IMG/VR virus record: IMGVR_UViG_3300037045_000078
Coordinates: 1 to 35,108 of that record
From: a virus
Lineage: Duplodnaviria > Caudoviricetes
Strand: one strand, 5' to 3'
DNA length: 35,108 nucleotides
A model generated the notes under the pieces. The model saw only the letters and a program-made list of their open reading frames with translations, was not told the DNA's origin and ran no database searches. A program made the position numbers and the translations under genes. Positions 76-16,777 of this stretch are shown in pieces. Position 1 is the stretch's first letter; each line of letters opens with the position of its first letter.

Positions 76-3000
76 TTAAGGTGGAAACCGTAAAAAATCG
101 TTCTTCGTCGGTACCATCACCCCTTTTATCTGTCTGCTCATCTCCGATGAACGTATGAGCGGTAGCCTTCCCGCGAGGCCCGCTTCCATTACGGCCCTGT
201 TGTATCCGCCCTGCTTCTTGTATATCTTTGTCAACGACGCATTTGTCCTCTTCGGGTCTACGGCCCAGGCCCGCAACTCCTGGTAGATCTTGTCTCTTTT
301 TCGCTCAAATGCCTGCTCCTGCTGGTACATTTCGTTGTCGCGTTCCCGCGCTACCGATTGACGCGATCCTGGAAAACCGACGACCCGGGCGGCGGTTTCC
401 GCTCCCGTGGGCGTGAACGGTTTGGCGTCCCTGCCCCATACTGGTACCCTGCCCTTTTCAGTCGTCACGCCGGTCCTTGATTCCCGTATTGCCCGCAGAG
501 GATTCGCCAGCGCCGTCGGTAAGAGTTTTTCAACGGCCCTTCCTGGCTGACCGGAGGCAAGAAGGCTGTTCGCCTGAACGATGTCTTCGGCAACGCCGCC
601 GATTGCTCCTGTCAATCCCATGAGGCCCGTTGGGATGCCCAGGCCGATGCCGAGGGAGCCGGATATGTCAACACCGGCCAACCCGAAGATACCGCGACGT
701 CCGAGGATCTCCGCCCGGTCGCCAAGGTATTTTCTCGTCTTGTCCCAGACGAACTTGTCAACCCCTGTGGTGATGCCAAGCGTACGCAGCATGCCATTGA
801 TCAACCACAGCAGCTCGTCTTTGAACGGCCACGCGGCACCACCGGCAATGATCACAGGTGTGGCCAGCGCCCATGTAAACCCTACAATGTTCTGTTTCTT
901 TGCGCCGAGATCATACAGGAGCTGGACGTAATTGTGTCCGAAATTGCCGTACACGTACATGGCCTGGCCAACCTTGGCGGATACCGATGTGCCCTGCGCC
1001 CACTCCGGAAGGTTTGATTTGCCATACGCGGCATGGGCCTTGTCGCTGGCCTCGATCGCTGCCTTGTATGCTGCTTCTTGCAATTCTTCACCTTTCAGTC
1101 CTTCTTTCGCAAAACGCATTTTTGCCACGCTGTACGCCGCGAGGATCGTCGTGCCCCTGTTCCACTGCTCAGTCTTGCTGAACACGAACATGGCCACTTT
1201 CATCATCCGGTCCCACGAGCGTTCAAGACCTCCCTGCATGGAACCCAACGCATCCCTGGTGAGCTGCGGGGCGTCGTACCCTTCCCGGGTGATGCGCTCG
1301 GCTATGATCTGATCCTCTGCCTCCAGGGTCTTGCCCACCATGTGCTTCGCATAGGAACGGCTAGCACGAGCGATCGCTTTGTGCACCGTCACCATGTTCA
1401 CCTGCCCGCCACCGGCATACTGGTGGATAGACGCCGGAGCGGATGTCACCATGGCCGTCAGGTTGACAAAGGCAGACCGGGGATTGAACCCTAAGAATTT
1501 CAAAGTCGCAACTGCCTTTGCATACGCCATAACCCTGTCGGCGGTGTCGCTGTTTCTCAGGTTCTCCTCGATGTACCGCTTCGCGGTGTCGTAAGCCTTC
1601 GGTTCAGTTGCAGGGTCGATCTGCTGGAGTAATTCGGTCGCTTTCTGGGAAACCTCTCCCTTTGCCATGCCCCCGGCAACACCGGACGTATAGCGCAGGA
1701 ACGCCTCTATCGGGTCTTGTATGTAGCCCTGGACGACTCGCCCCTTTGGGTTACGGTGTATCTTGGTCGATTCGATACCGCGTTCGCGGACCATGTTCAC
1801 GGCCTGTTCGATAAGATCTTCGTTGAATTTAACGAGAAGGTCCGCGCTCGTCTTCTTTTTCATGCCTGTTACAGCGTAATCTATGGCCTTCTGCACATCG
1901 ATCGACCTGATGTTGAGGTAGACCGACTCGGGCAACTTCTGGAAATCAGATACCTTTATTTCCTGGTACCCTTCTTTTTCCAGTTCTGCCTTCCGCAGTT
2001 CGCTCCAGTATTTTCCGCCATGTTCCCGGATATACTGCCGGTCGCCGAAATCGGCTTCCTTGTATGCGGTAATGACTATCTTCCCGGTCTTTCTCAACCG
2101 TGGGAAGTAATACCCGCGCCATTCGTCCATGACCTGTAATGCCCCTATGATGGTCTGCCGCAGTTCGGCCTTAAAATCCTTGTGGGCCTTGCGGAAAAAC
2201 CGTTTATGGTCATTCCACCACTCTTCCGCCGTCTGTTCGGTGAATGCTTCCCGGGAGAAATGGATTGATTGTACCTCCACTCCTCCGGCGCGGCTGTGGC
2301 CCATCACGTAATTGATTCCGTCATGCCAGGGTAAGCCAGCGCGTTCCTGTCGCTCTTTCCCCGAGGCCCTCCAGAAACCATCAAATTCCTTCGTGGATCT
2401 CACCGTGAAAACGTGGAAATTTGTGGTGCCCTTGTCCAGCTCGAACGGATCTTCCTGGTAGCCTTCCTGTTCAAGTTTTTTGAGTAGCTCTTTCATGGGT
2501 GCCTGCCTGGCGTCGAGCATCTTGTCGAACGCTGCCCGGACTAAAATGGCCACGCGCTTCACGTCCTCCGAAACTTTCATATTCTTGACGCGATCCTCGA
2601 AGGTCCAGTCTCTATCTTTTACCCATTCGGTATCTGCTTCTATAAGGATGGACGTGAGTTGTTCATAGCCTTTCTTGTCTTTTTTGCGCAGATCCGCTAT
2701 TGCCTCGGATACGGTCGTAGCTTCCCCCACGTCGTTGAAATCGTAAAATAACTCGTGATACGTTTCCTGGCGGTGGTGGGCCATGACGTTGAAGAGCTGT
2801 TTCAACACCGGGTGCTCGTACCATAAGGGGTTCTTCAGCACCCGTTCGAGGAAGTGTGCGTGCGGGAGGTTCTCCGGCATGTGTGCGATTATGGTTGCCG
2901 CTGCCGCCTTTGCGTGGTCTCGAATCCACCCCTTGATCTCCAAAGGCGGAGCTTTGGGCTCCGGCGGGGCCATCGCCTCGATCTGGTGCAAGATGTCGTC

Positions 3001-6000
3001 AACGAACGTGCTGCCCGTGACAGATCCGTCCAGCTCCTTCTTGAAGTACGTCCCCGTGGTCGCCTTTGGCACGACTCCGGAATAGCTTCTCGCCTGGTCA
3101 ATCAGGTGGAGGATGTCAGCGTCCGACCACGTAAGGTTCGGAGCAATCCTTCTCAGCGCTGCCCGGATGATCCCGACGATTCTCGCCCATACCGGTGTGG
3201 CTTCCCGTGCCTCCGCCATGTGGGCGATGAACTCGCTGACGGCAACCCTGCGGTCATCCCTGTCGTTTAAGTCAAGCGGGAGCCTCAAGGTCCCCATTTT
3301 GTGGCCATAACCCTTGACGATGCGATCCATGAGCGGCGTACCCTGATATGCCCTCGCGATCTGCTGCCAGATAACGTCCACGTCGGCATTCCGGAGAATT
3401 GCGGTAATCCCCCGATGCCCGACTGCCTCGTGAATGAGGGTGGCGATCGCGGCCCGTGCGTTGGGGATCAAGTCGGCGATGATGTACGTGGTATCGGTCT
3501 CCTGATCGTAGGCCCCGAAGATGGTGTCTCCCTCCTGCACGTAGCGCATGAACCTGACCGGCAACTCACGGGCAGACTTTATAACCGTGACTTTCCCGAT
3601 GTTGACCCATTGTTTCAGCGGCAGCGCGAGGAACTGTTTCACCTGGTCCACGGAGAACCGTGGCGTTTTCGGTGGCTTAATATCAAAAGACAGATTGCCC
3701 ACGTCGGCCTGGGTAGTCAGCTTGACGAATATGGGTTCAACGGAGGGGTTTATCAAGCTCCGCTGATGTAGGCTCCCGCCTCCATCTACGATATCCAGAA
3801 GGGTAAGGCCGGCACTTCTGCCAAAGTTTGCAATATTATTTGCTTCCGGACCAAGGATAGCGTGTTGCGGCGCATATATGCCGATATTCGAGGCGTTCCT
3901 CCGTTCGGCTTCCTGGAGCAACGCTCGCTGTATTTCACCGCGTATAGGCAATAACGATTCAATGGTAATGGTGCTTATGAGTTTGTTTCGTACATCGAAA
4001 AAGCCAACGGTAATGTTGGGATCGTCGCGCTTGATGCCCGCTCTCCTGAACGCCAGGACAAGCAAGGCGGGGTTGGTGGCGGACATATTTTCGGTTTTTG
4101 TTATGGCAAATCGACGCTCTACGACCGGTATTTCCTCGGTTTGTTTGGTTTTTCGAGGCATTTTAGCGGTTTTTTCCGGTAGTGAGAAGGCCCCGTATTC
4201 CGCCGACGCGTATGCTTTTGGTGTGACGGCCATAACTCCGTGGACCGTTACGCCCGATCCCTGGGCAACCCTGAACAGTCGAACGCCCACTTTCTTGTCT
4301 TCCTCGGACAGCTCCGCGACGCCCGACGGATGGTTATGGATAAACCACACACCGGTTACGCCCTCGGTGTTGAGTGCTTGGCCTATTGCTATCACGGGGG
4401 ATACGATAGATGCACTCATGCTACCCCTGCTTATGCGGTGTACGCTGTGAACCGTGCCGTCGTCTTTGGTGAGGATTGCTGCGAATGTTTCCTGGGGATC
4501 GTCGAGAAGGTTGCGCGCTATCTCAGCAACATCGTCGCTATTGCTGACTTTTCGTGTTCCAGCGCGATAGCTGCCGATTCTTTCTGTGACAACTTCCTGT
4601 TGACGCGGTACGGGACCGGATTTTCGACGTGAAGATCGTCCAGGTGTATGGGTGTCAATATTAAATAATGTACCTTGTTCTTTCGATCTGTTGTCATAGC
4701 CTAGTGTACGTTCAGATATGCGGGTTGTCAACTGGCCACCCCCGCCTTCCACGTCAAAGATGGGGCTGATGGCCAGTATTTCTTTCATAACCGCGATCCC
4801 GTCGTCGCCGGTAGGGATGAATACCCTCGTTTTGTAGCTGATGCGCTCGATGAGGGCACCGCATTGTTCGAGCTGCGTCTCGAATCTCCACAAGGTTTCG
4901 CCGGTTACTTCGATCCGGTCCATACCCTGGGTTTTCACGCGCTTCAGCGTCCAGTCGTTCGCCAGAGTTATCGTTTCCCCGTTGTCCAGGATAGCGTTAC
5001 ATGCCTCTTCCGGAGTATACGCTGCGGTTGATTTATCAACGTTCAGCTTCTTCAGTACGCCATTGAGATTCTTGTCGGGGATCAGCCGGCCCAGCAGCTT
5101 TTCGCCCGTGTTGAGCTTGAGCCGCATCACCCTGACGTGTTCCTGGGGGAGCCTGTCCCATATAGGCAAGAGCGCACCGGTAACAAGGTGGATCCTCCTC
5201 GCTTTCGTCTTCGGCACCTTGTCGTGCTGTTCACCCCATATCGCCTCGGCCTGAGCCATGTCGTCAATCCGATCGTATTTTTCCTCGTCCCGGAGGTCTC
5301 TTGCCTCCACTACATTGACAGTGCCCCGGGGGCTCGTGAGGGTTACGACAGCCGTCACTTCGCCGGTACTGGTATTGGTCGTGATACGTTCCTTGTTTGC
5401 CGCCCATACAACGCCGCTTTTTTTGTTCACCACATATCCGGAGGCTGCCCACAGTTTACTTGTCCGAAAATCAACGGTTACAGCGTCTTCGGAGAGTTCG
5501 ATCTCGTTGTACTTTGTCTGCTCTCCCTGGGGACCGGTGTAAACTATTTCTTCCCGGGTCCGTTTCGCCCCCTTCGCTAAAATTGTTTCCATGCCCGCGT
5601 CGAGGGTGCCGTCTGACGCCGCCTTTTCGATGATCTGGTCAAGGTGGGCGTCGAAGGCGTTAAAAACTTCCTCTTGCCGGTCCACGGTCAGCGAAAGCAG
5701 CCTGTTCAAAAATTGGGTTATCTCAGGAATCTCGTCACGGAGATGACCCTGGTCGTCGGTCAGCCTCATACCCGTTTCCAGTTCGAATTCCGCCATAGAC
5801 ATATTCTCAATGCCACCGCGGAAAATGGTATGTATGAGCCGGATGAACGCCTGGCGTGCATGTGAATTTTCAAGGTTGTCTTTCAGCTTGAAGATACCCT
5901 GTGTCGCCGTGTCGCGCTGTCCCTTGGTGAGCGATCCCAGCTGTTCGAGCCGTCGCGCAATAGAGGAAATAAACCGTTTCTGCCCCTTCAGATTAGTTGT

Positions 6001-9000
6001 AACCAGGTGAACGTAGGGAGGCTGTTTCTGGTTGCTCCGGTGTGTCCGGCCCAAACCCTGGATAGCTCTGTCAGCCCTCCAGCCAGGCTGCAGTAAATAG
6101 TGGTGCCGTAGCCGCTGGTTCTTCTCTGTCTTGTCTGCGTGGAAACTTCTGCCGGTTCCAGCCGCGTCGGAAAAAACAAGAAGCTGTTTCTTATCATTCA
6201 TAAAAGCATGGATGTCGTTGAGCCCTTTCGCCTTGCTCCACCGTTCCACAACCCGCTCTTTCTCGCCCTCGTTGTTTGTTTTATCTACAAGCCTTTTCGA
6301 CCGGCCCGTTGCCTCCGCTGCCTTGTCAATGCCAAAATGCCGGATGATCATGTCAAGCGGCGCATCCGGCACCTTCAGCATGCCGAGCCTCCGGAGCAGC
6401 GCGTCGCGCACGGCCACGGCTTCCCGGTTGATAACGGGGTTTCCGCTGGAATCGACAACCAAACGGGACCGTATATTCCCGTTGTCGTCGGTGTACTCTT
6501 CGTATTGCTGGATCGGGAAGCTGTTTTCCAGGTAGTTCATCAGCCCCTCACGCGGGGTGAGATCCAGGTCTTCCAGGCGGTCGCCTTCCTCCCGCTTCGC
6601 CATCGCCCGGTCGGTCTGCGCTTCGTTGGTGTTGACGAGCTGCACGACGGCGGCGTCTCCCTCGGCGAGGTTCTTCTCTATGGCCCTAATGACTGTCGGG
6701 GTCTGCATGGACGTGATGATCTGGTTGAAAAACCGCTGATGTGCGCCCCAGAATGCCCCCATAACATTTTTTCTGGCGTTGCCGTTCCTGGTGACCACCT
6801 GACCGGTGTGGGTTGTCCCGGTAATCCCGGTGGCCCGGAGCGCGGCGTGGATGTTCTGCAGGACGATCTGCCATGACCTGGCCATTTCGTCGTAAATTGC
6901 CTTCTGGTTCTCGGTCAGCTCGTGCTCGATGGTTTCGTACTTAACCCCGTCAAAAGAAAGGTTCCGGGCAATATAGGATCCCATCGCCTTGAGCCCCTGG
7001 GCGATCATTTCCATGCCGGCGATACCCGCCCCGGAGATCTGCTCAATGAAATTCCGCTTGTTGGAAAAGGGTGTTCCCTTCCCCCACAATCCAAGGTGGT
7101 CGCAATAGGAAAGGTTGACAACTTCCGTTGCGCCGGTAGCTGACGCATACACGGTCCGCGAATTGTAGAGCCGCGACTGCAGCTCCACGCCCACCACCGC
7201 CTTCATGGACGGCTTTTTTGTTCCGCGCCTCCCCCTGGTAGACAATGCGTTTCCCATGTTGTGGGATTCGTCAAAGGCTATGACGCCTTCGAATTCTTGT
7301 CCTGCCCACTCTACGACGGGGTCGATCCGGCGCACCGCGCCTTTTTTGTACTTTAACGTGTCGTAGCTTATGAAAAGAATGCCCTCTTTTTGCTTAACGG
7401 GCTGGCCGAATTTCGTGCCGGCGTAATCGATTACCAAGTTCGGGTCCATGCCGAGGGCTATAAGGTCGCGCTTTGCGTCGTGGATAAGGTCCGTATTCTG
7501 GCTTATCCATAGAGCCCTGCGCCGGCCCCGGTTCCAGTTATCGAGGATGATGCCGGCGATCTCCCGGCCCTTGCCTACTCCGGTGCCGTCACCGATAAAG
7601 AAACCCTTGCGGAATGTGTGGAACGTTTTGTTTTCCTGGCCCCCGCTGGTTGCAACGTTGCCTTTTGCGTCAAGATAGACGCCGGAGTCGAGGACTTCCC
7701 CGTGGGCCTGCCCGGCCATGGTGATGGCTTCGAGCTGGACGTCGCTTAATGCACCGGTTTCAGCAAGTTTCTTGTCGATATTCGGCACATAACTCGTTTT
7801 TGGAGCCTTTACGGTGGCCATCGCCGCACTTTCCACAAGTTCCGCCGGGTGCGGCTGCGCCCCTTCAATTTTTATGGAAGGCCTGTATTCCTCGAAGATG
7901 TTTCCCGATTCGAGGTCTTCATCGGTGTATGCTTCGGTCTGTTGTACGGTAAGGGCTGTTTCGGGGGTTAGTAGTCTGCCGCTTCCAGCATGCTCGTCAG
8001 CTGGTCTACTACCCTCCACGCCAGGTCTTCCGCTGATATCGTCGGCAGTTCTTTCTGATCCGCCAGGTCGCCGTCCCTCTGGAGCAGTTTCCAGGCCCGT
8101 TTCGGTTCCAGCCCCGCCATCTCCTCGAAGAACGGGTGTACGTACTGACCCCGGACGTTGTTCAGGGGTACCATGCCCGCGTTCCACTGTTCCTCTACCA
8201 GCTGGAGGCAATACAGCATCGACGGGTCGGGATCCTTGAGAAACTTCTTCGCTGCCCGGTTGAGCGGATGGTTGTTCTGTGACACTGCTTCTCGCATCGC
8301 GCGCTCCTTTCAGGAGGGCAACGGCATCCTTGATGTCGCTGACTTCCTCTTTTATTAGTTTAGCATTCGACTTCGCTTTGTCAATCACGATCAAACGGTT
8401 GTCATAGGTGGTGCCGTATTTTTTGTAGCCCTCGCCGGAGATGGTGATATCGACGATTACGTCATTGGTGACATCGATGTTGTCCAGCCACTCGTTGAAG
8501 GTTTTCGATTCGCCGAACAACCCCTTGCCAGTCAGCACCACGAGACGCCCGCCTGGCTCCAGCCGTGATAACGCCTGGCCAATATGCCTTATGAGGTTCT
8601 CAGGACTTCTTCGCCCCTGCATCCGGCCCGCCGAGGATGAAAAGGGCGGGTTCATGATGATTACGGAAGGCTTTATGTCGTCCGGAAGGATATTGTCGAT
8701 CTGCTCGCCGTTCTCGGTAAACACCTTCTCGAAATTCAGCTGTCTTAACAGGCTTGCCCTCCGCTGCGAAAGTTCGTTGACGTACACCTTTGCGCCTGCG
8801 TTCCGGGCAAATACCGCGAGGCCGCCCACGCCTGCCGATGGTTCCAGTACCGTTTCTCCCGGCGTGATGTTTCCCAGCCACGCCATGAGATATGCGAGGT
8901 CCGGCGGCGTGGAAAACTGTTGAAACTCGTCCATTTCTTTCGTCCGAAAACCATGTTGAGAAGGAATTTTGTCAAGGATCTGCTCTCGGATTTTCGTGAT

Positions 9001-12000
9001 AGCGTCTTGTGCGTCCATGATCGGCGTTGTTGATTTGCTCTGGCCAGGGTCATACGCCTTGTGGCCCTGTCCGAGATAACGGTTAACCCCCAACTCCATG
9101 GCGTCAAAAAGATCTTTCCATGTCAGTGCGCCGCTGGCAATCGTGCCGCCGTATGCATCTTCGCCCCACTTCATGAGCTGTTCGCGGGTAAAGGATTCCC
9201 CGTTGGCCAGGGCAGCGTCAACCTTGTCCATAACGGCGCGAGCGGCCCTTGTCTTGTCACCATCCATACGTTTTTCAATTGGCGTGTCTGCCTGTGTCTC
9301 TGGTGTGGCCGATGCTTGTGCGTTCTCGTCCACCGGGACAAACCGAGGATCTTTACGCTCTACATCGACCTGTATCCCCTCCCTGGTAGGAATAAGGCCC
9401 ACCGGTTCGGTGATCCCGATGTTTCCCTCCATGATGGAGCGGACGCCCTTGTCGTCCTCGAATACTTCCTGTCCGTATTTGTTCTTGCCGATAGACTTCG
9501 GTATAAGTGCTCCCCTGTCTGTGGTAAGGGGTGATTTCTTCGATTTCCACGGCGTCAGGGACCAATGGTCGTATTCGGCGTCGATCGCCTTGATGATCTT
9601 TTCCGCCGGGTCCTCGGTTCCATAAAAAGACCAAACCTTTTTCGGACCATACCAGTTACCTTTCGCTTGTTTGATCGCGTCCTTGTATGCCCTGGTATTT
9701 CCGCTTAAATTCCAAACCGGGTGTCCGTGCTTGGTTGTCGTTTTCGTGAGCGTAAGTTCCACGCTTTTCAGCTTTTCGTGTGCGTCCGATGTGTCGGTGA
9801 CGGTTCCCGTTTCCGGTGCCGGCGTAGTTTGCTGTTGCGGTGGCTGTGCTTCTGTTTTCTTCGGCCCCTGTATCTTCTCCGCTTCTTCCGGGTACTCTTT
9901 GGCCCACGCGTCGAACGCATCCTGATACTTCTGCGCGTCTTTCTCATAGCTTTCCGCTGTCCGTAAATGGCCGGCCTTTATTGAATCCTTTCTTGCCCGG
10001 CCAGCTGCCTCCCGTGAGTTCCGTGCCTGTCTTCCAGTATAAGAGATCATGCTGAAAAGAGTTTCCGGGATTTGCCAACGGTTATCAAAATAGATGTCTT
10101 TCACGAGCTTACCGGTAAACGGTTCTGTTTCGTGTTGGATGTCGGTCGCCCTGGACGCCGTAATGCTCACGCCATTGTCTGTTTCGATTTCATAGGTGAC
10201 GGTATGTGTTGATTGCCCGCCGAAAATAGACTGCATGGTGTAGCCGCCTACCACTTTAATAACGCCGTGTCGTCCCCGGAGAGAAGGACTGTGGTACGTG
10301 TCGGTAATGACGATCCGGTCGCCCTTTTTGTATTCTTCCTGCTTCGGCGTCTCTTTGGGTGCCTCCGTTTCCGGTTTTTTGTTAAAAAGGTCGTGCCGGC
10401 GGGCGTATTTGAGTACGGCCTCGGCAAAGCTCTTCTTGTCAAATGTGTCCAGGTATACCTTTTGTGATTGCGACAGCGGCTTGTTCGAGCCTAATATCTC
10501 GTCTACTACCTCGCCGTATGCCTCGTTTGTCGCCTTTTCGATGGTAGCGAGCAAGGCTGTTTCGCTGTTGTCCGGGTTGAGATATGGCTTTATCTTTTCG
10601 AGTGTTTTGTCACGGATGGCCTCGGAAAGAGACATATCATGCGCTATGCCTTGGGGTGCTTCCGCTGGTTTCCCTGCCTCTTCCGCCAACTTCTTGTCGA
10701 TGGCCTCGACGATCTTTACCGTTGGCCAGCCGCCCTCGAACGGTACGCCCAACATCAAAGCATACATACGGGCCTTAATAAGATGATCGCGCCAGTCATC
10801 CTCTGGATCTATGGTTGGTTTTTTACCCAGGGCGATCTGTCCGGCCACTTCCCACGCCTGTTTTTCCGACTGAAATATCCGTACTGTCGGCAAGAATTCC
10901 ATGGAATCGTTGTCCCTGATGGAAACGGAGAAATTATTTCCGTTGATGTTTCTAGCGACGAATATCTCAAGGTTGTTTTTCTTGTCCGGTATAGTACCAA
11001 GAAGCTCGGTCGGGCTAAAAGGTGGCTTCTTTGCTCCGGTTTCTTCCGGTGCCGCGCCCATTTCCCCCTTCTTGTAATTGGTTGGGCTCCAATGATGTCC
11101 GCCCATGGTGGATACTTTTATGTACCCGTCGCCCTGTACGTGTTCGACAATGCCAGGTTTCAATACATCCGTGTCGCGGATCGGGACGACGTAATGGCCG
11201 ATCTTGAAGGAGGATTGCCTGGCTTCCGGTGTTTCCTTCCCCTCCATGGCCCTTGACGCCGCCCGCTGTTCAGCCGTCGGCATACGCAAATTGCCTGTTT
11301 GAACCCCCAATATATCCTTTATTTTGGTGGCCTTTTCGGTTTCTCCCCGCTCGATCGCTTCCTTTATGGTCCTCTTGATCTCGTCAACTATAGCTTCGTA
11401 ATCGGAGAACCTCGGGCCTACCATCTTTTCGATCTGTGCGGCCAGCTCGGGGTCAGCGTCTTCCATGGCATCCGCGAGCGAATTGGAAACAGGCCCCCAT
11501 GAGAACCCGTCTTCCGCTGGTCCTTCTTCTATCTCTTTGGTAGGGGCTTCCGTTGTTGCTTGATTTTCCACCGGTGCTTTCTCGCTTCGTTCCTCGGCAT
11601 ATTGCGCCGCTGCTGCCTCGTAAAACTGTTTTGCTTTCCCTTCCGGCAGCGCGTCAACGGCACCAAAAAGGTACGCCTTGACATCGACGCCCTTTGCCGT
11701 GGCCCGCCGTGCGATCTCCGCCAGGATCGGCTTGAGCTTTTCGTACAGTTCGGGCTTTATCCCCGCCGGCTTGCCGTAATTAATGCGGCTATCGGATACT
11801 CTTCCCTCTTCTTCTTCAATAAATTCGTTGATAATATCAAAAGCCTCCGTTATCAGCTCATTGGTCGATTTCTTCGTTAGATCTTCTGCTGGTGCAGCGT
11901 TTGCTTCTGCCTCTGCCTTTTGCTTTGCTGCGAGGGCTTCCTGAAGTTTCTTTTTCTGCTCTTCTTCCTTCTCCCGCTCGGTCTGAAACACCGGTTTCGG

Positions 12001-15000
12001 GCGCAGGAATAGCTCGGCCTTCGGTTCTTTCCCCGGCGTAAAACTCCCCTGCTTTACCGGCTGATTACCGGAAAGGTTGAAAATGTCGTCGGTGTTGAAT
12101 AGTTCCCCGTCGGTTGTGGGGGCTGGTGGTGTTTCTGTTCTGGATTTCTTTACTTGTTCTTTGAGGGCCGCAAGTCTTTCAGCAAACTCTCCGCCAGTAA
12201 TTTGATTGTTAATTGCTGTTTCAAGGCTGCTAACAATTTGGCCGATTTCGGTGTCACTGAACCCTTCTCCATGTAATTCCTCCTTTATACCTATAATATT
12301 TATTTCTGTGGTGTCAATGATCTCGTCAATGCTGCTTTCCGGGATAAACCCGTCGGCCTTGAGCTGGTCGTCGGTCAGCGGGATCTCCGCCGTTTCAACC
12401 TCCGGCCCCTTCCCGCTCTTGTTCTGAAAGCGCGCCATTTCATCGGTTATAAGATCGAATACTTCCGATTCAGTCCATTCTACCGTTCCCTGTTCCTGTC
12501 CTTCCAAACCCGAGGGCGGTAACTTCATGGGTATTGCCCCATTGTTCATGGCCTCGTTGAATAGCTGGACAAAGCTGTTCCAACGCGAGTCACTGCCGCC
12601 GGCAAGATCCTGTCCTTTCCGCATCTTCTGTAATAGGGGCAAAAAGTACCGGTATTGCTTAAAAAACGTGTAGTACGGGAAGGGGGTGTCTTCGGTGATG
12701 GCCCTGGCTTCCTTGGTTTTCTTGGGCTTCCCTTTCTTCGCCTCGGCTGCCGCCGTGACGTCTTCTTCCTTGGTTGTTTCGTGGATACCCTTCTTGGCTG
12801 GTGCCTTAACGCCGAATTGTTTCGCCAGGTCCGGGTATTTCGCGAGGATCTCCGGGGGCACCGGCTTCTTGAGCTGCAATGCTACCGCTACCGTGGTTTC
12901 GTTCCATTCCTCGCCCGCTTTCCCTTTTTGCTGATTCGCCCCGATCTCAAGCCCGGCCAGCCAGTTTCGTAAAATGTTGGCTTCTTTGTTCACGGTTGCT
13001 GATAGGTGTCCTTGTGTGCGTTTTTCTAATTCAGCGCGAAAGTCATGTATGGCCCCGATCAAGGCATCGTCGCGGGTATCATATTGGTGGTATTCGTAAA
13101 TACTCGGGTGCCAGCCATGGCCGCCGTTGTCAATCTGGACACTATAACCATACGTCCAGGTACCGTTCGGGGCTTTGCCCAGGATTATGTGGTTCTGCGG
13201 ATAGTGCCCTTTTTTCGATGGTGGGGCCTCGATCTCTTCGGTTTCAAACCGATATTCCGATCTCCCCAGGTCGTCTCGTTTCTTTTCGGTAAATCCCCAT
13301 ATTGTACTTGCAATCTCGTCCGCCATGGCGTTGTCAGCGTCCGTGTGGGTTAAACCTTCCGGCATTTTCGTGGTTGACATTGCACCAGCGTAAGGATGTT
13401 TTCTCTTGATCGCTTCAACTTCCTTGGAAATATCCCCGCTTTGTTTGCCAGTAAAGGCTTTCTGAGAGCCAATACCCATCCTTTCGCGCTCTTTAACGTT
13501 GCGCATCAGATCGTCACGGGCTCCCTTTACCGTCATGGCAACACCGATCACGTCCTTATGCGGCCCTTCGGTGACAGTCGCCCTGTACCCGCCCTTGTAC
13601 GTATCTCCGGTGGTAATTTTCCTGATAGAGTGCGCTGGAAGGTGTTCCGTCTTGACCACATCGTCGGAGGAAGATTCCCCTGCCTCTTCCTCGCCAGTGT
13701 CGCTCGCGAGTGAGAGTATTTTCTTTGACTCTTCTATTTCTTTTTCATCGAGGGCTACATATCCACCGGGTGTAACGGCATTTTCATTAGTTCTGGCCGC
13801 ACCAAGCTCTAAAATCTCGTCTGAAGGTAACGTTGAGGGCGGTTCAAAACGTTCGGGCGCTGTCATCTCACCGAGTTCGTCCAGGGGTGCGTTCGGTGGC
13901 ATGGCTGATTCTTCAGCTGTTTTTTGCGCCTCCTGTGCCATCCGTATCCCGTCTGCCATCCCGGCAGGAAGGTCTGCCATGCGGGCATGGTCAAGGATGA
14001 TACGGTCCATGCGCTGTACTGCCGGGTGATCCGGGCCGAGTACGTTCGCCGTCTTGTCCCTCAAAACTTCTGCCTGCACCGTGTTTATCTGTTTCGATTC
14101 GAGCAGCCCCTTCATCTGTTCAACGATGGCTGTCGTTCTCTGATCTCCTATGACCGGTCCAGCCGGTGCGGTTGGCCCTGTCTGTGGTCCAGGCTGCGGC
14201 CTTTGTTGCCCTGGCTGTGGTGCGGTAGGCTGCCCTGTGACCGGCGGTTGTGTTGCCGGCTGTCCGCCTAATTCGGTTGTAGCTGGCGCGCCGGTTTGTT
14301 CTTTCAGCTTCGCAGCTTCGTTGTATGCTTTCCTGGTAATGGCCCCGGAAGCTCCGCCAATTGCAAAACCGCCCACGGCCCCGGCAGCTGCACCGTCCAC
14401 GGCCTGGAGAAATTGCTTCTTTGTCCACAGGTCGTTCGGGTCAATGCCCCATTGTTCTGCATACGTCTGGAAGAATTCTTCCGCTCCTTCGCCAAGCATC
14501 TGTGTTAATGCCGATTGGCTTATGCGGTTCCATAGTCCTTTTTTGGCGAATTCGGCCACTTCTGGACCGAATTTCAACAGTTTTGCGGTGGCCTTTTCTG
14601 TTCCAAGCTCTTCAAATTTACTTGCTATAAAGATAGCGGCTGCCGCTCGAAGCGGGTCAAGCTCGTTCGTTTCCCCTTTTTCGAGGCGTTCTATCTGCCC
14701 GCCGAGGATCTCACCGGCCTCCATCATGCCGATGGGCACATCCATGGGTTTTAGCTTTGCCCACTCGACGAGGTAAGTAAGTGCCTTCTTGCCGAGGCTC
14801 GTTTGCGCCACTTTCGGGGCAATTTGCGCCATCTGCACAGCCCGGCCCTGGACCATGAACGGTGCGGTTATTGCCACTTGCGCGCCCATCTGCCCTATTG
14901 CGCCAGCTCCCCACTTGAGCCCGCTCTCTATGCCATCTATTTCAAAGACTGAACCGACTTCCGGCTCAACCTTCTTCAATGGCGTGTCCCAATAGTGCCG

Positions 15001-15429
15001 AACGTTTTTACCGAAGCTGGTCGTTGCCCCTTCCTTTGGCAGTCCAGGGGGTGGCTCATATGTTGGCCCGTTCGGGTCAGCTTTCGGTATGGGTGTCCCT
15101 AAATGTTCCGGTCCGATCTCGTCTATGTCCCATTCAGGGGGTGAACCTTTGTACTGGTCACCTAACCGTCCCAGGTATTCAATGGCAGAACCAATGCCTT
15201 TGTTTGCCTGGAGCCATCCGCGAGCGACGCCTTTGACGCCCTCCCTCGTAATCCCTACCATGCCCTCGCCTATCTTCCGGTACGTGCTTCGGTCATCCGT
15301 GTCGGGGCCAAACGTTTCTGTTGTTCCAGCCAGTTCGTCGAGAAAACCACGCTTCGCCGGTTTCTCGGCCTGTTTGCCTACCGGTTTGTCAATTCCTATG
15401 AGTTCGTCAAGAAAGCTGTCGTTCGCCAC
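76..15429 (-). CDS. Giant polyvalent virion/ejection protein (DarB-like): N6-adenine MTase + Strawberry-notch SF2 helicase + JAB/RadC + zincin-like motif + LPD-like helical C-terminus
   Basis: 5117-aa ORF, GTG start with AGGAGG SD. Motifs QQFSTPP, VLEPSAGVGGLA, IIMNPPF, GDGTGVGKGRE, IAFDESHN, YASATGA, QGLGRTHRSNQ, HNHPSGxxxxSxxD, HEAVGH. It is the last gene of the virion module, where podoviral large internal proteins lie. Confidence 0.9.
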   Translation of the reverse strand: MANDSFLDELIGIDKPVGKQAEKPAKRGFLDELAGTTETFGPDTDDRSTYRKIGEGMVGITREGVKGVARGWLQANKGIGSAIEYLGRLGDQYKGSPPEWDIDEIGPEHLGTPIPKADPNGPTYEPPPGLPKEGATTSFGKNVRHYWDTPLKKVEPEVGSVFEIDGIESGLKWGAGAIGQMGAQVAITAPFMVQGRAVQMAQIAPKVAQTSLGKKALTYLVEWAKLKPMDVPIGMMEAGEILGGQIERLEKGETNELDPLRAAAAIFIASKFEELGTEKATAKLLKFGPEVAEFAKKGLWNRISQSALTQMLGEGAEEFFQTYAEQWGIDPNDLWTKKQFLQAVDGAAAGAVGGFAIGGASGAITRKAYNEAAKLKEQTGAPATTELGGQPATQPPVTGQPTAPQPGQQRPQPGPQTGPTAPAGPVIGDQRTTAIVEQMKGLLESKQINTVQAEVLRDKTANVLGPDHPAVQRMDRIILDHARMADLPAGMADGIRMAQEAQKTAEESAMPPNAPLDELGEMTAPERFEPPSTLPSDEILELGAARTNENAVTPGGYVALDEKEIEESKKILSLASDTGEEEAGESSSDDVVKTEHLPAHSIRKITTGDTYKGGYRATVTEGPHKDVIGVAMTVKGARDDLMRNVKERERMGIGSQKAFTGKQSGDISKEVEAIKRKHPYAGAMSTTKMPEGLTHTDADNAMADEIASTIWGFTEKKRDDLGRSEYRFETEEIEAPPSKKGHYPQNHIILGKAPNGTWTYGYSVQIDNGGHGWHPSIYEYHQYDTRDDALIGAIHDFRAELEKRTQGHLSATVNKEANILRNWLAGLEIGANQQKGKAGEEWNETTVAVALQLKKPVPPEILAKYPDLAKQFGVKAPAKKGIHETTKEEDVTAAAEAKKGKPKKTKEARAITEDTPFPYYTFFKQYRYFLPLLQKMRKGQDLAGGSDSRWNSFVQLFNEAMNNGAIPMKLPPSGLEGQEQGTVEWTESEVFDLITDEMARFQNKSGKGPEVETAEIPLTDDQLKADGFIPESSIDEIIDTTEINIIGIKEELHGEGFSDTEIGQIVSSLETAINNQITGGEFAERLAALKEQVKKSRTETPPAPTTDGELFNTDDIFNLSGNQPVKQGSFTPGKEPKAELFLRPKPVFQTEREKEEEQKKKLQEALAAKQKAEAEANAAPAEDLTKKSTNELITEAFDIINEFIEEEEGRVSDSRINYGKPAGIKPELYEKLKPILAEIARRATAKGVDVKAYLFGAVDALPEGKAKQFYEAAAAQYAEERSEKAPVENQATTEAPTKEIEEGPAEDGFSWGPVSNSLADAMEDADPELAAQIEKMVGPRFSDYEAIVDEIKRTIKEAIERGETEKATKIKDILGVQTGNLRMPTAEQRAASRAMEGKETPEARQSSFKIGHYVVPIRDTDVLKPGIVEHVQGDGYIKVSTMGGHHWSPTNYKKGEMGAAPEETGAKKPPFSPTELLGTIPDKKNNLEIFVARNINGNNFSVSIRDNDSMEFLPTVRIFQSEKQAWEVAGQIALGKKPTIDPEDDWRDHLIKARMYALMLGVPFEGGWPTVKIVEAIDKKLAEEAGKPAEAPQGIAHDMSLSEAIRDKTLEKIKPYLNPDNSETALLATIEKATNEAYGEVVDEILGSNKPLSQSQKVYLDTFDKKSFAEAVLKYARRHDLFNKKPETEAPKETPKQEEYKKGDRIVITDTYHSPSLRGRHGVIKVVGGYTMQSIFGGQSTHTVTYEIETDNGVSITASRATDIQHETEPFTGKLVKDIYFDNRWQIPETLFSMISYTGRQARNSREAAGRARKDSIKAGHLRTAESYEKDAQKYQDAFDAWAKEYPEEAEKIQGPKKTEAQPPQQQTTPAPETGTVTDTSDAHEKLKSVELTLTKTTTKHGHPVWNLSGNTRAYKDAIKQAKGNWYGPKKVWSFYGTEDPAEKIIKAIDAEYDHWSLTPWKSKKSPLTTDRGALIPKSIGKNKYGQEVFEDDKGVRSIMEGNIGITEPVGLIPTREGIQVDVERKDPRFVPVDENAQASATPETQADTPIEKRMDGDKTRAARAVMDKVDAALANGESFTREQLMKWGEDAYGGTIASGALTWKDLFDAMELGVNRYLGQGHKAYDPGQSKSTTPIMDAQDAITKIREQILDKIPSQHGFRTKEMDEFQQFSTPPDLAYLMAWLGNITPGETVLEPSAGVGGLAVFARNAGAKVYVNELSQRRASLLRQLNFEKVFTENGEQIDNILPDDIKPSVIIMNPPFSSSAGRMQGRRSPENLIRHIGQALSRLEPGGRLVVLTGKGLFGESKTFNEWLDNIDVTNDVIVDITISGEGYKKYGTTYDNRLIVIDKAKSNAKLIKEEVSDIKDAVALLKGARDARSSVTEQPSAQPGSEEVSQGSRPVDAVLPPAGRGTVERGHGTPEQRPGSVRTPVLRGDGGAGTETGLETAPEGRRPGGSERTADDISGRPGVEGSRPADEHAGSGRLLTPETALTVQQTEAYTDEDLESGNIFEEYRPSIKIEGAQPHPAELVESAAMATVKAPKTSYVPNIDKKLAETGALSDVQLEAITMAGQAHGEVLDSGVYLDAKGNVATSGGQENKTFHTFRKGFFIGDGTGVGKGREIAGIILDNWNRGRRRALWISQNTDLIHDAKRDLIALGMDPNLVIDYAGTKFGQPVKQKEGILFISYDTLKYKKGAVRRIDPVVEWAGQEFEGVIAFDESHNMGNALSTRGRRGTKKPSMKAVVGVELQSRLYNSRTVYASATGATEVVNLSYCDHLGLWGKGTPFSNKRNFIEQISGAGIAGMEMIAQGLKAMGSYIARNLSFDGVKYETIEHELTENQKAIYDEMARSWQIVLQNIHAALRATGITGTTHTGQVVTRNGNARKNVMGAFWGAHQRFFNQIITSMQTPTVIRAIEKNLAEGDAAVVQLVNTNEAQTDRAMAKREEGDRLEDLDLTPREGLMNYLENSFPIQQYEEYTDDNGNIRSRLVVDSSGNPVINREAVAVRDALLRRLGMLKVPDAPLDMIIRHFGIDKAAEATGRSKRLVDKTNNEGEKERVVERWSKAKGLNDIHAFMNDKKQLLVFSDAAGTGRSFHADKTEKNQRLRHHYLLQPGWRADRAIQGLGRTHRSNQKQPPYVHLVTTNLKGQKRFISSIARRLEQLGSLTKGQRDTATQGIFKLKDNLENSHARQAFIRLIHTIFRGGIENMSMAEFELETGMRLTDDQGHLRDEIPEITQFLNRLLSLTVDRQEEVFNAFDAHLDQIIEKAASDGTLDAGMETILAKGAKRTREEIVYTGPQGEQTKYNEIELSEDAVTVDFRTSKLWAASGYVVNKKSGVVWAANKERITTNTSTGEVTAVVTLTSPRGTVNVVEARDLRDEEKYDRIDDMAQAEAIWGEQHDKVPKTKARRIHLVTGALLPIWDRLPQEHVRVMRLKLNTGEKLLGRLIPDKNLNGVLKKLNVDKSTAAYTPEEACNAILDNGETITLANDWTLKRVKTQGMDRIEVTGETLWRFETQLEQCGALIERISYKTRVFIPTGDDGIAVMKEILAISPIFDVEGGGGQLTTRISERTLGYDNRSKEQGTLFNIDTHTPGRSSRRKSGPVPRQQEVVTERIGSYRAGTRKVSNSDDVAEIARNLLDDPQETFAAILTKDDGTVHSVHRISRGSMSASIVSPVIAIGQALNTEGVTGVWFIHNHPSGVAELSEEDKKVGVRLFRVAQGSGVTVHGVMAVTPKAYASAEYGAFSLPEKTAKMPRKTKQTEEIPVVERRFAITKTENMSATNPALLVLAFRRAGIKRDDPNITVGFFDVRNKLISTITIESLLPIRGEIQRALLQEAERRNASNIGIYAPQHAILGPEANNIANFGRSAGLTLLDIVDGGGSLHQRSLINPSVEPIFVKLTTQADVGNLSFDIKPPKTPRFSVDQVKQFLALPLKQWVNIGKVTVIKSARELPVRFMRYVQEGDTIFGAYDQETDTTYIIADLIPNARAAIATLIHEAVGHRGITAILRNADVDVIWQQIARAYQGTPLMDRIVKGYGHKMGTLRLPLDLNDRDDRRVAVSEFIAHMAEAREATPVWARIVGIIRAALRRIAPNLTWSDADILHLIDQARSYSGVVPKATTGTYFKKELDGSVTGSTFVDDILHQIEAMAPPEPKAPPLEIKGWIRDHAKAAAATIIAHMPENLPHAHFLERVLKNPLWYEHPVLKQLFNVMAHHRQETYHELFYDFNDVGEATTVSEAIADLRKKDKKGYEQLTSILIEADTEWVKDRDWTFEDRVKNMKVSEDVKRVAILVRAAFDKMLDARQAPMKELLKKLEQEGYQEDPFELDKGTTNFHVFTVRSTKEFDGFWRASGKERQERAGLPWHDGINYVMGHSRAGGVEVQSIHFSREAFTEQTAEEWWNDHKRFFRKAHKDFKAELRQTIIGALQVMDEWRGYYFPRLRKTGKIVITAYKEADFGDRQYIREHGGKYWSELRKAELEKEGYQEIKVSDFQKLPESVYLNIRSIDVQKAIDYAVTGMKKKTSADLLVKFNEDLIEQAVNMVRERGIESTKIHRNPKGRVVQGYIQDPIEAFLRYTSGVAGGMAKGEVSQKATELLQQIDPATEPKAYDTAKRYIEENLRNSDTADRVMAYAKAVATLKFLGFNPRSAFVNLTAMVTSAPASIHQYAGGGQVNMVTVHKAIARASRSYAKHMVGKTLEAEDQIIAERITREGYDAPQLTRDALGSMQGGLERSWDRMMKVAMFVFSKTEQWNRGTTILAAYSVAKMRFAKEGLKGEELQEAAYKAAIEASDKAHAAYGKSNLPEWAQGTSVSAKVGQAMYVYGNFGHNYVQLLYDLGAKKQNIVGFTWALATPVIIAGGAAWPFKDELLWLINGMLRTLGITTGVDKFVWDKTRKYLGDRAEILGRRGIFGLAGVDISGSLGIGLGIPTGLMGLTGAIGGVAEDIVQANSLLASGQPGRAVEKLLPTALANPLRAIRESRTGVTTEKGRVPVWGRDAKPFTPTGAETAARVVGFPGSRQSVARERDNEMYQQEQAFERKRDKIYQELRAWAVDPKRTNASLTKIYKKQGGYNRAVMEAGLAGRLPLIRSSEMSRQIKGVMVPTKNDFLRFPP
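3080..3660 (-). other. Zincin-like metallopeptidase domain of the giant protein
   Basis: GAYD..TYIIAD..TLIHEAVGHRGI (HExxGH at about 3415-3432), later SEFIAHMAE as a possible third ligand. Boundaries approximate. Confidence 0.65.
3785..4520 (-). other. JAB/RadC domain followed by a degenerate second JAB-like copy
   Basis: PQETFAAIL..HNHPSGVAELSEED has the full JAB metal motif (about 4295-4340). The second unit VGFFDVRNKLI..GLTLLDIVD keeps the RadC pattern but lacks HxH. Confidence 0.75.
4518..4697 (-). CDS. Nested +1-frame 59-aa ORF, probably leaderless (MTTDRKNKVHYLILTPIHLDDLHVENPVPYRVNRKLSQKESAAIALEHEKSAIATMLLR)
   Basis: Translated by hand. ATG lies 5 nt after a -10 box of a near-consensus promoter; TAG at 4518-4520. 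Confidence 0.5.
   Translation of the reverse strand: MTTDRKNKVHYLILTPIHLDDLHVENPVPYRVNRKLSQKESAAIALEHEKSAIATMLLR
4703..4731 (-). promoter_or_regulatory. Intragenic sigma70-type promoter
   Basis: TTGACA (4726-4731) - 17 nt - TACACT (4703-4708). Confidence 0.7.
4750..7900 (-). other. Strawberry-notch-family SF2 helicase/ATPase region
   Basis: LSDVQLEAI, Walker A GDGTGVGKG (about 7567-7593), Walker B DESH (about 7261-7272), SAT, SDAAGTGRSFH, QGLGRTHRSNQ (6028-6060). Boundaries approximate. Confidence 0.9.
7968..8297 (-). CDS. Nested +1-frame 109-aa protein in the MTase-helicase linker
   Basis: AAAGGAG SD before ATG and its own promoter. Globular helical-looking sequence with G/C-ending codons (AAC CTC AAG CAG GAG TTC), while the host frame reads as R/G/S/P filler. 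Confidence 0.8.
   Translation of the reverse strand: MREAVSQNNHPLNRAAKKFLKDPDPSMLYCLQLVEEQWNAGMVPLNNVRGQYVHPFFEEMAGLEPKRAWKLLQRDGDLADQKELPTISAEDLAWRVVDQLTSMLEAADY
8310..9240 (-). other. N6-adenine DNA methyltransferase domain
   Basis: Motif I LEPSAGVG (about 8825-8848) precedes motif IV NPPF (8641-8652), i.e. gamma order. Boundaries approximate. Confidence 0.9.
8357..8384 (-). promoter_or_regulatory. Intragenic sigma70-type promoter with extended -10
   Basis: TTGACA (8379-8384) - 16 nt - TAAACT (8357-8362), with TG at the extended -10 position (TGcTAAACT); 59 nt upstream of the nested ATG. Confidence 0.7.
12150..12272 (-). CDS. Nested +1-frame 40-aa peptide (MEKGSVTPKSAKLLAALKQQLTIKLLAESLLKDLRPSKNK)
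   Basis: Translated by hand. Perfect AAAGGAGG-aattac-ATG; TAA at 12150-12152; Leu/Lys amphipathic helix pattern. Confidence 0.6.
   Translation of the reverse strand: MEKGSVTPKSAKLLAALKQQLTIKLLAESLLKDLRPSKNK
12290..12317 (-). promoter_or_regulatory. Possible intragenic promoter
   Basis: TTGACA (12312-12317) - 16 AT-rich nt - TATAGG (12290-12295), directly before the SD. The -10 is imperfect. Confidence 0.45.
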
Positions 15430-15442
15430 TGTTGTCCTCCTG

Positions 15443-16777
15443 TCACTGCACGCCCTTTAAGCGTTTCCACGCCTGCTTTATGGTGTCCTCGCTGTAGCCC
15501 ATTTTGACCAGTGCGTCATACATGGCTTTTTGACCGAGTTTGCCCGTATTTGTTGTAAAATAGTCCGTAGCCCCGGTAATGTTGTGGTCTTTATTAGCCT
15601 TGTAATCCTGCTTTCCGCCGATAACTCCGCTACCGCCTTTGGGCTGCTTTCGGTACTTCGCCCACTGGTCGGGGTAGTCTTCCTGCATGAGCGATTCGAG
15701 GCTGTTGATCTGCCCCTGGATCGTGGCCTTCGCTGCCTCAACCTGGTCCTGGGGTATGATTTGCTGCGTGATAGGGTCAACGCCTTTCTGTATGTTGGCC
15801 ATGGATTTATAGAGGCCGTTGAGCTGGCCCATGTGCATCCTGAATTCCCTCGCGTCACCTGCGCCACCGCCACCACTTCCACCGCTATCTGGTTTGTGTA
15901 TCCGGTATGGTGCGCCGAAAGGTATGTCGTGCTGGCCCGTCTGGGGGTTCCACTGAAACTTCTGTTGCTGGTTAGAACCGATTGGCTTCTCGACGTACAT
16001 TGACGGCGTCGGCTGTTTCCCCCCGATGCTGGTGGGCTTCTGGACAACCTCAAATACGCCGTCTTTGTTCCAGCGCACAAGACCGTCGCCGCCGAATTTC
16101 AGGAAGCTCCACTCGCCCTTTTGGGTGATGTCTCCTGGTCTAATCTGTCCGTACTTCTGTGTAATCCACGGGTTTGAGTTCCATGCTTTCATGGCTCCCT
16201 GGGGCGATATCTTCGCAATGGCGAAAATGTTATCAAATTCGGCCTTTTGCAGTCTGTTTGCTTCATCAAAACGCCCGTTTGCCAAAAGGGTGTCGTGTAT
16301 CTTCATCATCATTTCGCCGCGCTTCATGAGTACGTCTGGGTGAAGGGGTGGCCTCACAACGGGATCGTTGCCTTGCAGCTCCATGGGTCCCGGAGTGACC
16401 CGTTGTCCTGGTTGGGCTTGAATGTCCTGCGGTGCAGGCTTCTGCACTGACATCCCCGCTCCGCTATCGACGTTCGGTGCACCGATGACATTTTCCACTG
16501 GGGTTGCTGCCGGTGTTCTCACCGGCAAGGGTTGTTGTGGCGGCTGCGCTCCTATGGCCGGGGCTGCCGGCATACTCCCCACTGCTTTCCGGTATTCGTC
16601 TACGTGGCCTTGGATAGTCTTCAACAGTTCTTCCTCTCGCCGAACTTTCTTGAGGCCCTGGTCTGCTATCTCTCTTCTTAGTGCAAATTCTTTATTTCGG
16701 TTCTCTCGCTCGTCGAGCCGGGGAATCTCTGAGTTCAGCGCGTGGGTTGCTCCAATTGCCATACTTTTCCAGTCCAT
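15443..16777 (-). CDS. Putative internal virion/DNA-ejection protein (444 aa)
   Basis: Real start is MDWKSM at 16777 (GGAGG SD, TGATG overlap with the upstream stop), not 17200. Coiled-coil and P/Q-rich segments; lies between tail genes and the giant gene. Confidence 0.7.
   Translation of the reverse strand: MDWKSMAIGATHALNSEIPRLDERENRNKEFALRREIADQGLKKVRREEELLKTIQGHVDEYRKAVGSMPAAPAIGAQPPQQPLPVRTPAATPVENVIGAPNVDSGAGMSVQKPAPQDIQAQPGQRVTPGPMELQGNDPVVRPPLHPDVLMKRGEMMMKIHDTLLANGRFDEANRLQKAEFDNIFAIAKISPQGAMKAWNSNPWITQKYGQIRPGDITQKGEWSFLKFGGDGLVRWNKDGVFEVVQKPTSIGGKQPTPSMYVEKPIGSNQQQKFQWNPQTGQHDIPFGAPYRIHKPDSGGSGGGGAGDAREFRMHMGQLNGLYKSMANIQKGVDPITQQIIPQDQVEAAKATIQGQINSLESLMQEDYPDQWAKYRKQPKGGSGVIGGKQDYKANKDHNITGATDYFTTNTGKLGQKAMYDALVKMGYSEDTIKQAWKRLKGVQ

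Follow-up and report, generated by a model that had tools for sequence, protein, structure and literature searches.

Does a phage gene for a giant enzyme hold a second gene in the linker between two of its domains, and could the product of that second gene act on the enzyme itself? The question is raised by a window of 35,108 bases, a viral record that is 60% complete and was analysed over its full length. The window carries podovirus-type genes, each encoded on the minus strand, for a P22-like portal, capsid, SU10 adaptor, endolysin and holin, and the phage is probably temperate. Its run of virion genes is closed by an ORF for a polyvalent, DarB-like protein of 5117 aa (76..15429, minus strand). 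A reading made without database searches (the sequence-only reading) had placed an overlapping 109-codon gene inside this ORF. Elsewhere in the window, two minus-strand ORFs, at 16777-18237 (486 aa) and 15443-17200 (585 aa), share 424 nt when taken from their first start codons. This overlap, at 16777-17200, may merely reflect a start called too early.

The giant host ORF

Functional annotation of the host ORF identified an NPPF methylase, a Strawberry-notch ATPase (AAA_34 and Helicase_C_4) and a RadC-like JAB domain. The adenine methylase core (8299..8898, minus) has an EPSAG motif and NPPF at 8652-8641, and matches Pfam MTS weakly (E 0.0017). The Strawberry-notch-like SF2 ATPase core (5575..7947, minus) comprises AAA_34 at about 7854-6886 (Pfam, E 2e-105) and Helicase_C_4 at about 6360-5587 (E 1e-81). 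Its model (pLDDT 85.2) has a SWI2/SNF2-like fold and matches the translocases Chd1, CSB, Mot1 and Rad54. Across the 98 loci compared below, EPSAGxG is present in 95 and NPPF/Y in all 98, NPPF having belonged to the rule by which loci were selected. The ATPase motifs are intact (GxGKG in 96, DExH in 98 and GRxHR in 95).

P1 DarB is the archetype of the methylase-helicase dyad of polyvalent proteins, which has a Strawberry-notch-like variant (excerpts of PMC5512222), and it enters the next cell along with the DNA and acts there (excerpts of PMC5512222 and PMC9024508). The host ORF has the corresponding parts, methylase motifs and a C-terminal SWI2/SNF2-like ATPase. From the place of its gene after portal, capsid and adaptor, and from section 14 of PMC5512222, we infer by analogy that the giant protein would be packed in the virion and injected with the DNA, acting in the newly entered cell, where it may shield that DNA against restriction.

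A 109-codon frame in the linker

The nested gene (7968..8297, minus) lies in the +1 frame of the giant ORF, with its ATG at 8297 and its stop ending at 7968. It spans host residues 2378-2488, between the NPPF methylase and the AAA_34/Helicase_C_4 domains, and is wholly contained in an intact host ORF in another frame, as in Rz1-type embedding. The elements reported by the sequence-only reading (TTGACA/TG/TAAACT, AAAGGAG, the ATG and the 109-aa frame) are all present at this place on the minus strand. Its remark that the codons resemble those of genuine phage genes also stands: codon-position GC (1/2/3) of the nested frame, at 0.66/0.35/0.75, follows the pattern of the capsid and portal genes, and over this span the host frame gives 0.75/0.67/0.35. 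The host-frame linker is 19% G and almost without F, W, Y, C and M, whereas the nested frame is protein-like in composition. ORF length alone is not beyond chance, as the longest stop-free +1 stretches in the giant gene run to 125, 113, 111 and 102 codons. It is the comparative tests that put both the nested ORF and its promoter beyond chance, though neither is so when taken alone.

We compared substitution patterns between the window and four IMG/VR loci at 89-91% identity, in all four of which both frames stay open. Over the nested span dN/dS was 0.29 for the nested and 1.37 for the host frame, compared with 0.12 and 0.09 for the host frame in the 600-nt flanks; these are pairwise values from five close, related sequences and are not independent counts. 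Selection thus changes frame over exactly the nested span, and the earlier proposal that the nested frame is the one under selection is borne out. In the same span only 7 of 60 host third positions vary, against 21-48 of about 60 codons in most windows. The nested pS of 0.16 is half of the 0.34 in the flanks, which suggests that the host frame still constrains the sequence somewhat, at least to remain open. The host frame may tolerate the nested gene because the linker needs only to be an open, flexible tether rich in G, R, P and S.

The nested gene across related loci

A HMMER search of 1.84 billion representatives yielded 11 matches to the nested protein, mostly of 96-124 aa and at 35-54% identity. 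In four distant loci (31-32% identity) the nested gene occupies the identical frame and place. To avoid selecting on the nested gene, further loci were fetched with the host ATPase alone. Of 155 viral matches the best 80 were taken, and likewise the best 80 of 461 matches from a scan of genomes. A locus was called a carrier if a +1 start lay 110-135 codons past NPPF and opened a frame of at least 90 codons, a rule set after a first look at the data. It held for 79 of these 80 viral loci and 19 of these 80 cellular loci; a similar rule was satisfied by 89 of 1983 control windows (4.5%). The sequence-only reading had asked whether homologues always sit between a methylase and a Strawberry-notch domain, and this is true of every homologue with visible DNA context. 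The nested proteins are 105-146 aa long with a median net charge of -7. The family is highly divergent and fast-evolving, with 17% mean column identity.

The 61 cellular non-carriers consist of 57 short-linker loci (0/57 with the gene), one longer-linker relative of these and three without a methylase in view. The short-linker loci, mostly alphaproteobacterial genes, have both enzymes but lack the nested gene. A tree built by a quick method from methylase plus ATPase (85 rows) places the carriers together on one side of a branch whose support is 100. The only non-carrier among the best 80 of 155 viral loci (L096) also keeps both enzymes and sits on a long branch within the carrier side, from which loss of the nested gene is likely. 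Its linker before position 3001 is taken up by in-frame sequence of ordinary appearance, part of which resembles a helical domain, and no SD/ATG context is left. Five carriers (L062, L079, L085, L101 and L103) have 80-140 additional in-frame residues between the nested stop and the ATPase, which indicates that the gene keeps its position relative to the methylase end rather than to the start of the ATPase.

Start signals were examined in the same loci. The Shine-Dalgarno sequence AAAGGAG (8304..8310, minus) lies 6 nt ahead of the ATG, within host codons L-K-G-A-R-D of the last methylase helix. A 5-mer SD is present in 55 of 77 non-redundant loci, compared with a mean of 23.2 and a maximum of 32 in 200 synonymous shuffles. 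The nested starts (94 ATG and 4 GTG) fall 116-134 codons past NPPF and nearly always within host codons R-N or R-D, and often an in-frame stop stands 1-4 codons ahead of the nested ATG. We also considered a coupled restart of ATPase translation after the nested stop and rejected it, since a host-frame ATG lies near that stop in just 3 of 98 loci.

An ORF that begins exactly where the methylase ends could in principle extend the methylase by frameshifting, serve in translational control or simply follow from the composition of the linker, and would then not be translated on its own. This is very improbable given the conserved start codon and SD, the in-frame stop so often found shortly before the ATG, the purifying selection, the confident fold described below and the rarity of any restart codon for the ATPase. 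The nested gene is almost certainly real.

In one metatranscriptome run, 0.20 of the words were found, and two of four contigs cover the nested gene (7924-8124, identical; 8047-8195, about 90%). Because the run was found by using this stretch and consists of contigs only, it is no evidence of separate transcription.

An internal promoter in some lineages

The sequence-only reading gave the nested gene its own promoter. The sigma70-type promoter-like site (8357..8384, minus) consists of TTGACA at 8384-8379, a 16-nt spacer, an extended -10 TG at 8365-8364 and TAAACT at 8362-8357, with the -35 hexamer in methylase codons I-D-K. A scan of promoters alone is at chance (12 sites vs 11.1 expected), though this site ranks first. 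Across loci, and with an approximate sigma70 matrix, the 138 nt ahead of the SD outscore their own codon-shuffled versions (Wilcoxon p 3e-6). Scores of 9.5 or higher were reached by 21 of the 77 loci; for each of 12 control windows the number was 0-5 of 77, and among 58 non-carrier loci it was 0.

The I-D-K site itself is conserved (76 of 77 loci have the motif). Counting a -10 box when its score was above 1 at a distance of 16-18 nt, we found one in 13 of 21 loci with TTGACA and in 1 of 55 with another hexamer, and the Fisher p of 1.6e-8 overstates this association because the 13 loci are not independent events. They sit in one broad subclade with long branches and account for 4 changes on the tree. 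The -10 boxes are encoded by different residues in different loci, and in the five closest sequences the box retains T-A---T despite residue changes. We interpret the promoter as being under selection, since without it synonymous sites should hardly have lasted across distances of this size. That it is a by-product of AT content is unlikely: the 55 loci with other hexamers include 15 with the AT-richer TTGATA or TAGATA, and have a single -10 box (with TAGATA).

The promoter is not a universal feature. The score of 9.5 is reached in only 21 of 77 loci, and the four distant loci have no TTGACA at the site; other loci have strong sites elsewhere, and most have no recognisable promoter. The claim of an own promoter is therefore supported by family-wide statistics as a feature of about a quarter of lineages, the window included, and not of the family as a whole. 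In those lineages promoter, ribosome site and start codon are all encoded within the codons of an enzyme, and the promoter is statistically visible across lineages in which synonymous sites are expected to be saturated.

Phages, plasmids and host range

Tyrosine integrase genes were detected in 23 of 50 loci hand-picked from 80, and in 19 of 28 near-complete records, which suggests that carriers of the nested gene are mostly temperate. None of the four closest loci has one; three of the four closest viral records are classed as proviruses. A 4.8 kb contig from a Syntrophorhabdus bin (L097) holds a near-identical locus including the nested gene, with an ATPase 92% identical, and points to Syntrophorhabdus as the phage host genus without proving it.

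The nested gene was also found on four plasmid records. On NC_016108.1 (RefSeq), a plasmid of the cultured Methylotuvimicrobium alcaliphilum 20Z, it is unannotated inside MEALZ_RS20390, downstream of traI and genes for a coupling protein, traF and topoisomerase III. On a plasmid of Thioflavicoccus mobilis (NC_019941.1; L179, 3914-8996) the host gene is apparently split into frames of 1311 and 490 aa adjoining an IS66 transposase, and a match to the nested protein remains in an unannotated stretch. Among cultured phages the nested protein had no match under E 0.3, and the host ORF matched in its methylase part only.

A confident fold without a recognised family

AlphaFold2, run with 94 sequences, predicted a six-helix all-alpha domain with pLDDT 91.6 and pTM 0.86, so that the proposed protein also has the confident fold by which the sequence-only reading would have judged it. 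No Pfam or PHROG family was common to more than 1 of 94 members, and PF14198, which we take to be TnpV, matched 0 of 94 at E 0.05. A PDB sequence search returned nothing under E 0.057, Foldseek against PDB and BFVD gave no match at E 0.001, and matches in the ESM Atlas were confined to unnamed clusters (best 0.91, with low recognition). The best VIA-align match had Z 4.0 and an rmsd of 3.8 over 85 aligned residues; the lack of matches does not prove a new fold. Known DNA mimics showed no sequence or fold kinship among the matches listed, and a family outside those matches could still be kin. A deep profile of the nested protein found only four database proteins, as would be expected if gene callers skip the frame, and in keeping with the limits of the word index. 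This is a widespread protein family that gene callers miss and that has no family or fold match.

Predicted complex with the ATPase

We predicted the complex of the nested protein with the ATPase core and obtained ipSAE values of 0.76, 0.80 and 0.00 in three runs (median 0.76). The best of three controls, which were unrelated proteins not matched for acidity, reached 0.01. Among solved pairs 116 of 157 attain the mark for a predicted complex, and among mismatched pairs 2 of 215; these rates apply here roughly, as our own alignments were used. Runs agreed on 42% of contacts or more, with a partner pLDDT of 76 or above. The PDB holds no sequence relative of the ATPase core, which makes memory of a like complex unlikely.

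The predicted interface is strongly charged, with 13 D/E and 2 K/R on the small protein and 13 K/R and 8 D/E on the ATPase. Across the family (81 rows) the interface columns of the small protein are acidic, with a median net charge of -6 vs 0 elsewhere, and the ATPase side is basic (median +3). Contacts on the ATPase include residues 150-151, 194-203 and 441-449 and are closest at 388-397. SF2 motifs Ia, Ib and IV bind nucleic acid, and we take the first three segments to lie at or after these motifs (441-449 being the helix after IV). The predicted site is thus likely the DNA-binding face of the ATPase, as assigned from SF2 motifs and not from superposition.

Other features of the interface count against this picture, as does the run that scored 0.00. 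On the small protein the interface columns show lower conservation (0.27) than all others (0.39, a set that includes the buried core), and charges do not covary between the partners (rho -0.07, p 0.52). Since the controls were not charge-matched, an acidic protein could dock in a basic groove for generic reasons. On balance, the models make it fairly probable that the nested protein binds the ATPase. The earlier suggestion of a regulator or inhibitor of the methylase-helicase module is strengthened by a controlled predicted complex with the ATPase half, and inhibition itself stays a prediction.

Alternatively, the true target could be the methylase domain, with the nested protein as its inhibitor or specificity subunit and the ATPase docking an artefact of prediction. 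The start is fixed relative to the methylase end, at 116-134 codons past NPPF, while domains can insert before the ATPase, and an acidic protein could equally mimic the DNA substrate of the methylase. We give this little credence: the fixed start is explained by the SD and ATG lying in the last methylase codons, and the ATPase complex passed its controls in two of three runs.

T7 Ocr and ArdA are small acidic DNA mimics that occupy the DNA-binding surfaces of host restriction enzymes. The nested protein would resemble them in its acidic predicted docking face and differ in its predicted target, which is the phage's own enzyme, whereas Ocr and ArdA hit host restriction enzymes in trans. It could nevertheless be an independent anti-defence or host-acting protein of this kind, directed at host restriction or at further defence enzymes that bind DNA, which uses the permissive linker only as a shelter and is made early from its own promoter. 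An acidic, fast-evolving product and a promoter in a subset of lineages fit this idea, and ardD, an antirestriction gene placed antisense inside tniA (excerpts of PMC3533173), is a precedent for such a gene within another gene. The idea is decidedly unlikely, as every copy with visible context lies inside this one linker, most lineages have no recognisable promoter and the predicted complex with the phage's own ATPase passes controls. No free-standing copy was found in five records without the nested gene, a weak search that had no positive control.

A candidate plug for the phage's own motor

Our preferred reading, at a probability of about 0.52, is that the nested protein is a cis-encoded, DNA-mimic-like inhibitor that plugs the Strawberry-notch translocase of its own phage. 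As modelled, the acidic product would sit on the DNA face of the ATPase and keep the motor off DNA in the producing cell. The giant protein would travel with the DNA, like P1 DarB, and act in the next cell. The small protein, made from the same mRNA, would always be present where the giant protein is made and would not travel along. Co-expression from the host mRNA is the feature common to all carriers, and the promoter is an add-on that could supply the small protein when the virion operon is silent, in a prophage or in early infection. Nesting would make the lock inseparable from the enzyme. Retention of the gene on conjugative plasmids, which have no virion, counts for the inhibitor reading, and its absence from the 57 short-linker relatives and from L096 counts against it, as the gene is evidently not obligatory.

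Binding as predicted does not by itself fix the sign of the effect. The nested protein might instead be a folding chaperone, a packaging or secretion adaptor or an activator of the ATPase or the whole module, comparable to Ulx and DdrB, which help P1 DarB into the head. Co-expression from one mRNA fits a stoichiometric helper, and P1 Ulx is listed as an aid to DarB localisation (excerpts of PMC9024508). We consider such a helper unlikely: the gene is retained on conjugative plasmids that have no capsid, an internal promoter that can act independently of the host gene makes little sense for a helper, and the predicted site is the likely DNA face.

We think unlikely a further extension of the inhibitor reading, in which temperate phages and conjugative plasmids alike would carry an inhibitor with a new fold, and prophages of the promoter-bearing lineages would make it constantly and so disarm the anti-restriction enzyme injected by superinfecting relatives, as an anti-anti-restriction defence. 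The DNA of those relatives would then be left open to host restriction. If the predicted binding is true, it would explain how cells that make large DNA-acting cargo proteins are protected. It would also provide a specific inhibitor for cloning and assaying the uncharacterised methylase/Strawberry-notch ATPase module, and a first handle on prokaryotic Strawberry-notch enzymes.

Relation to known embedded genes

To our knowledge, bacteria and phages seldom have long genes that are fully embedded and clearly under selection. One counterpart among the cases we compared is lambda Rz1, an out-of-frame gene embedded in Rz whose product forms a complex with that of Rz (excerpts of PMC6139136 and 10.64898/2025.12.20.695498). 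As with Rz1, a whole out-of-frame gene with a start signal and purifying selection lies inside a phage gene; binding is here predicted only, in two of three runs. Spanins are membrane lysis proteins in which both partners are structural, whereas the nested protein is soluble, acidic and placed in an enzyme linker. Unlike Rz1, it takes over selection from the host frame, has a promoter in some lineages and is predicted to block a motor. In spanins a lipoprotein o-spanin is encoded inside a membrane-anchored i-spanin within a lysis cassette. We rejected a spanin identity, because the nested gene lies in a polyprotein of enzymes, its product is modelled as a compact helical domain and the endolysin and holin genes are 22 kb off.

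In Synechocystis slr0489, slr1079 and slr1082, long genes lie internally in another frame, and their products bind to or otherwise interact with that of the host frame (excerpts of 10.64898/2025.12.20.695498). Translation was shown for those genes, whereas it is deduced for the nested gene of the window. Their host genes also differ, the words "helicase", "methyltransferase" and "strawberry" occurring 0 times in the main text of that source. Section 14 of PMC5512222 describes no second gene in the linker, and "overlapping" and "linker" occur 0 times in its main text. We found no description of a gene inside a methylase-ATPase linker in literature whose full-text coverage omits most subscription papers. 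Embedded genes with interacting products were thus already known, and what appears to be new is an unclassified protein family in this linker.

The giant ORF contains a second promoter-like site, TTGACA-16/17-TA(A/C)(A/G)CT, within window positions 4731-4518 (minus) and at 8567 in L001-L004. Five nt past it, an ATG opens a 59-codon +1 frame just ahead of the JAB domain. The site, its spacing and the length of 59 codons are preserved in all four close relatives, though the host residues differ. Selection on this frame is ambiguous, with dN/dS of 0.62 vs 0.54 for the host frame, and 0.41 vs 0.83 over the first 30 codons. The site is possibly the start of a leaderless second nested gene, or of a transcript for the downstream domains.
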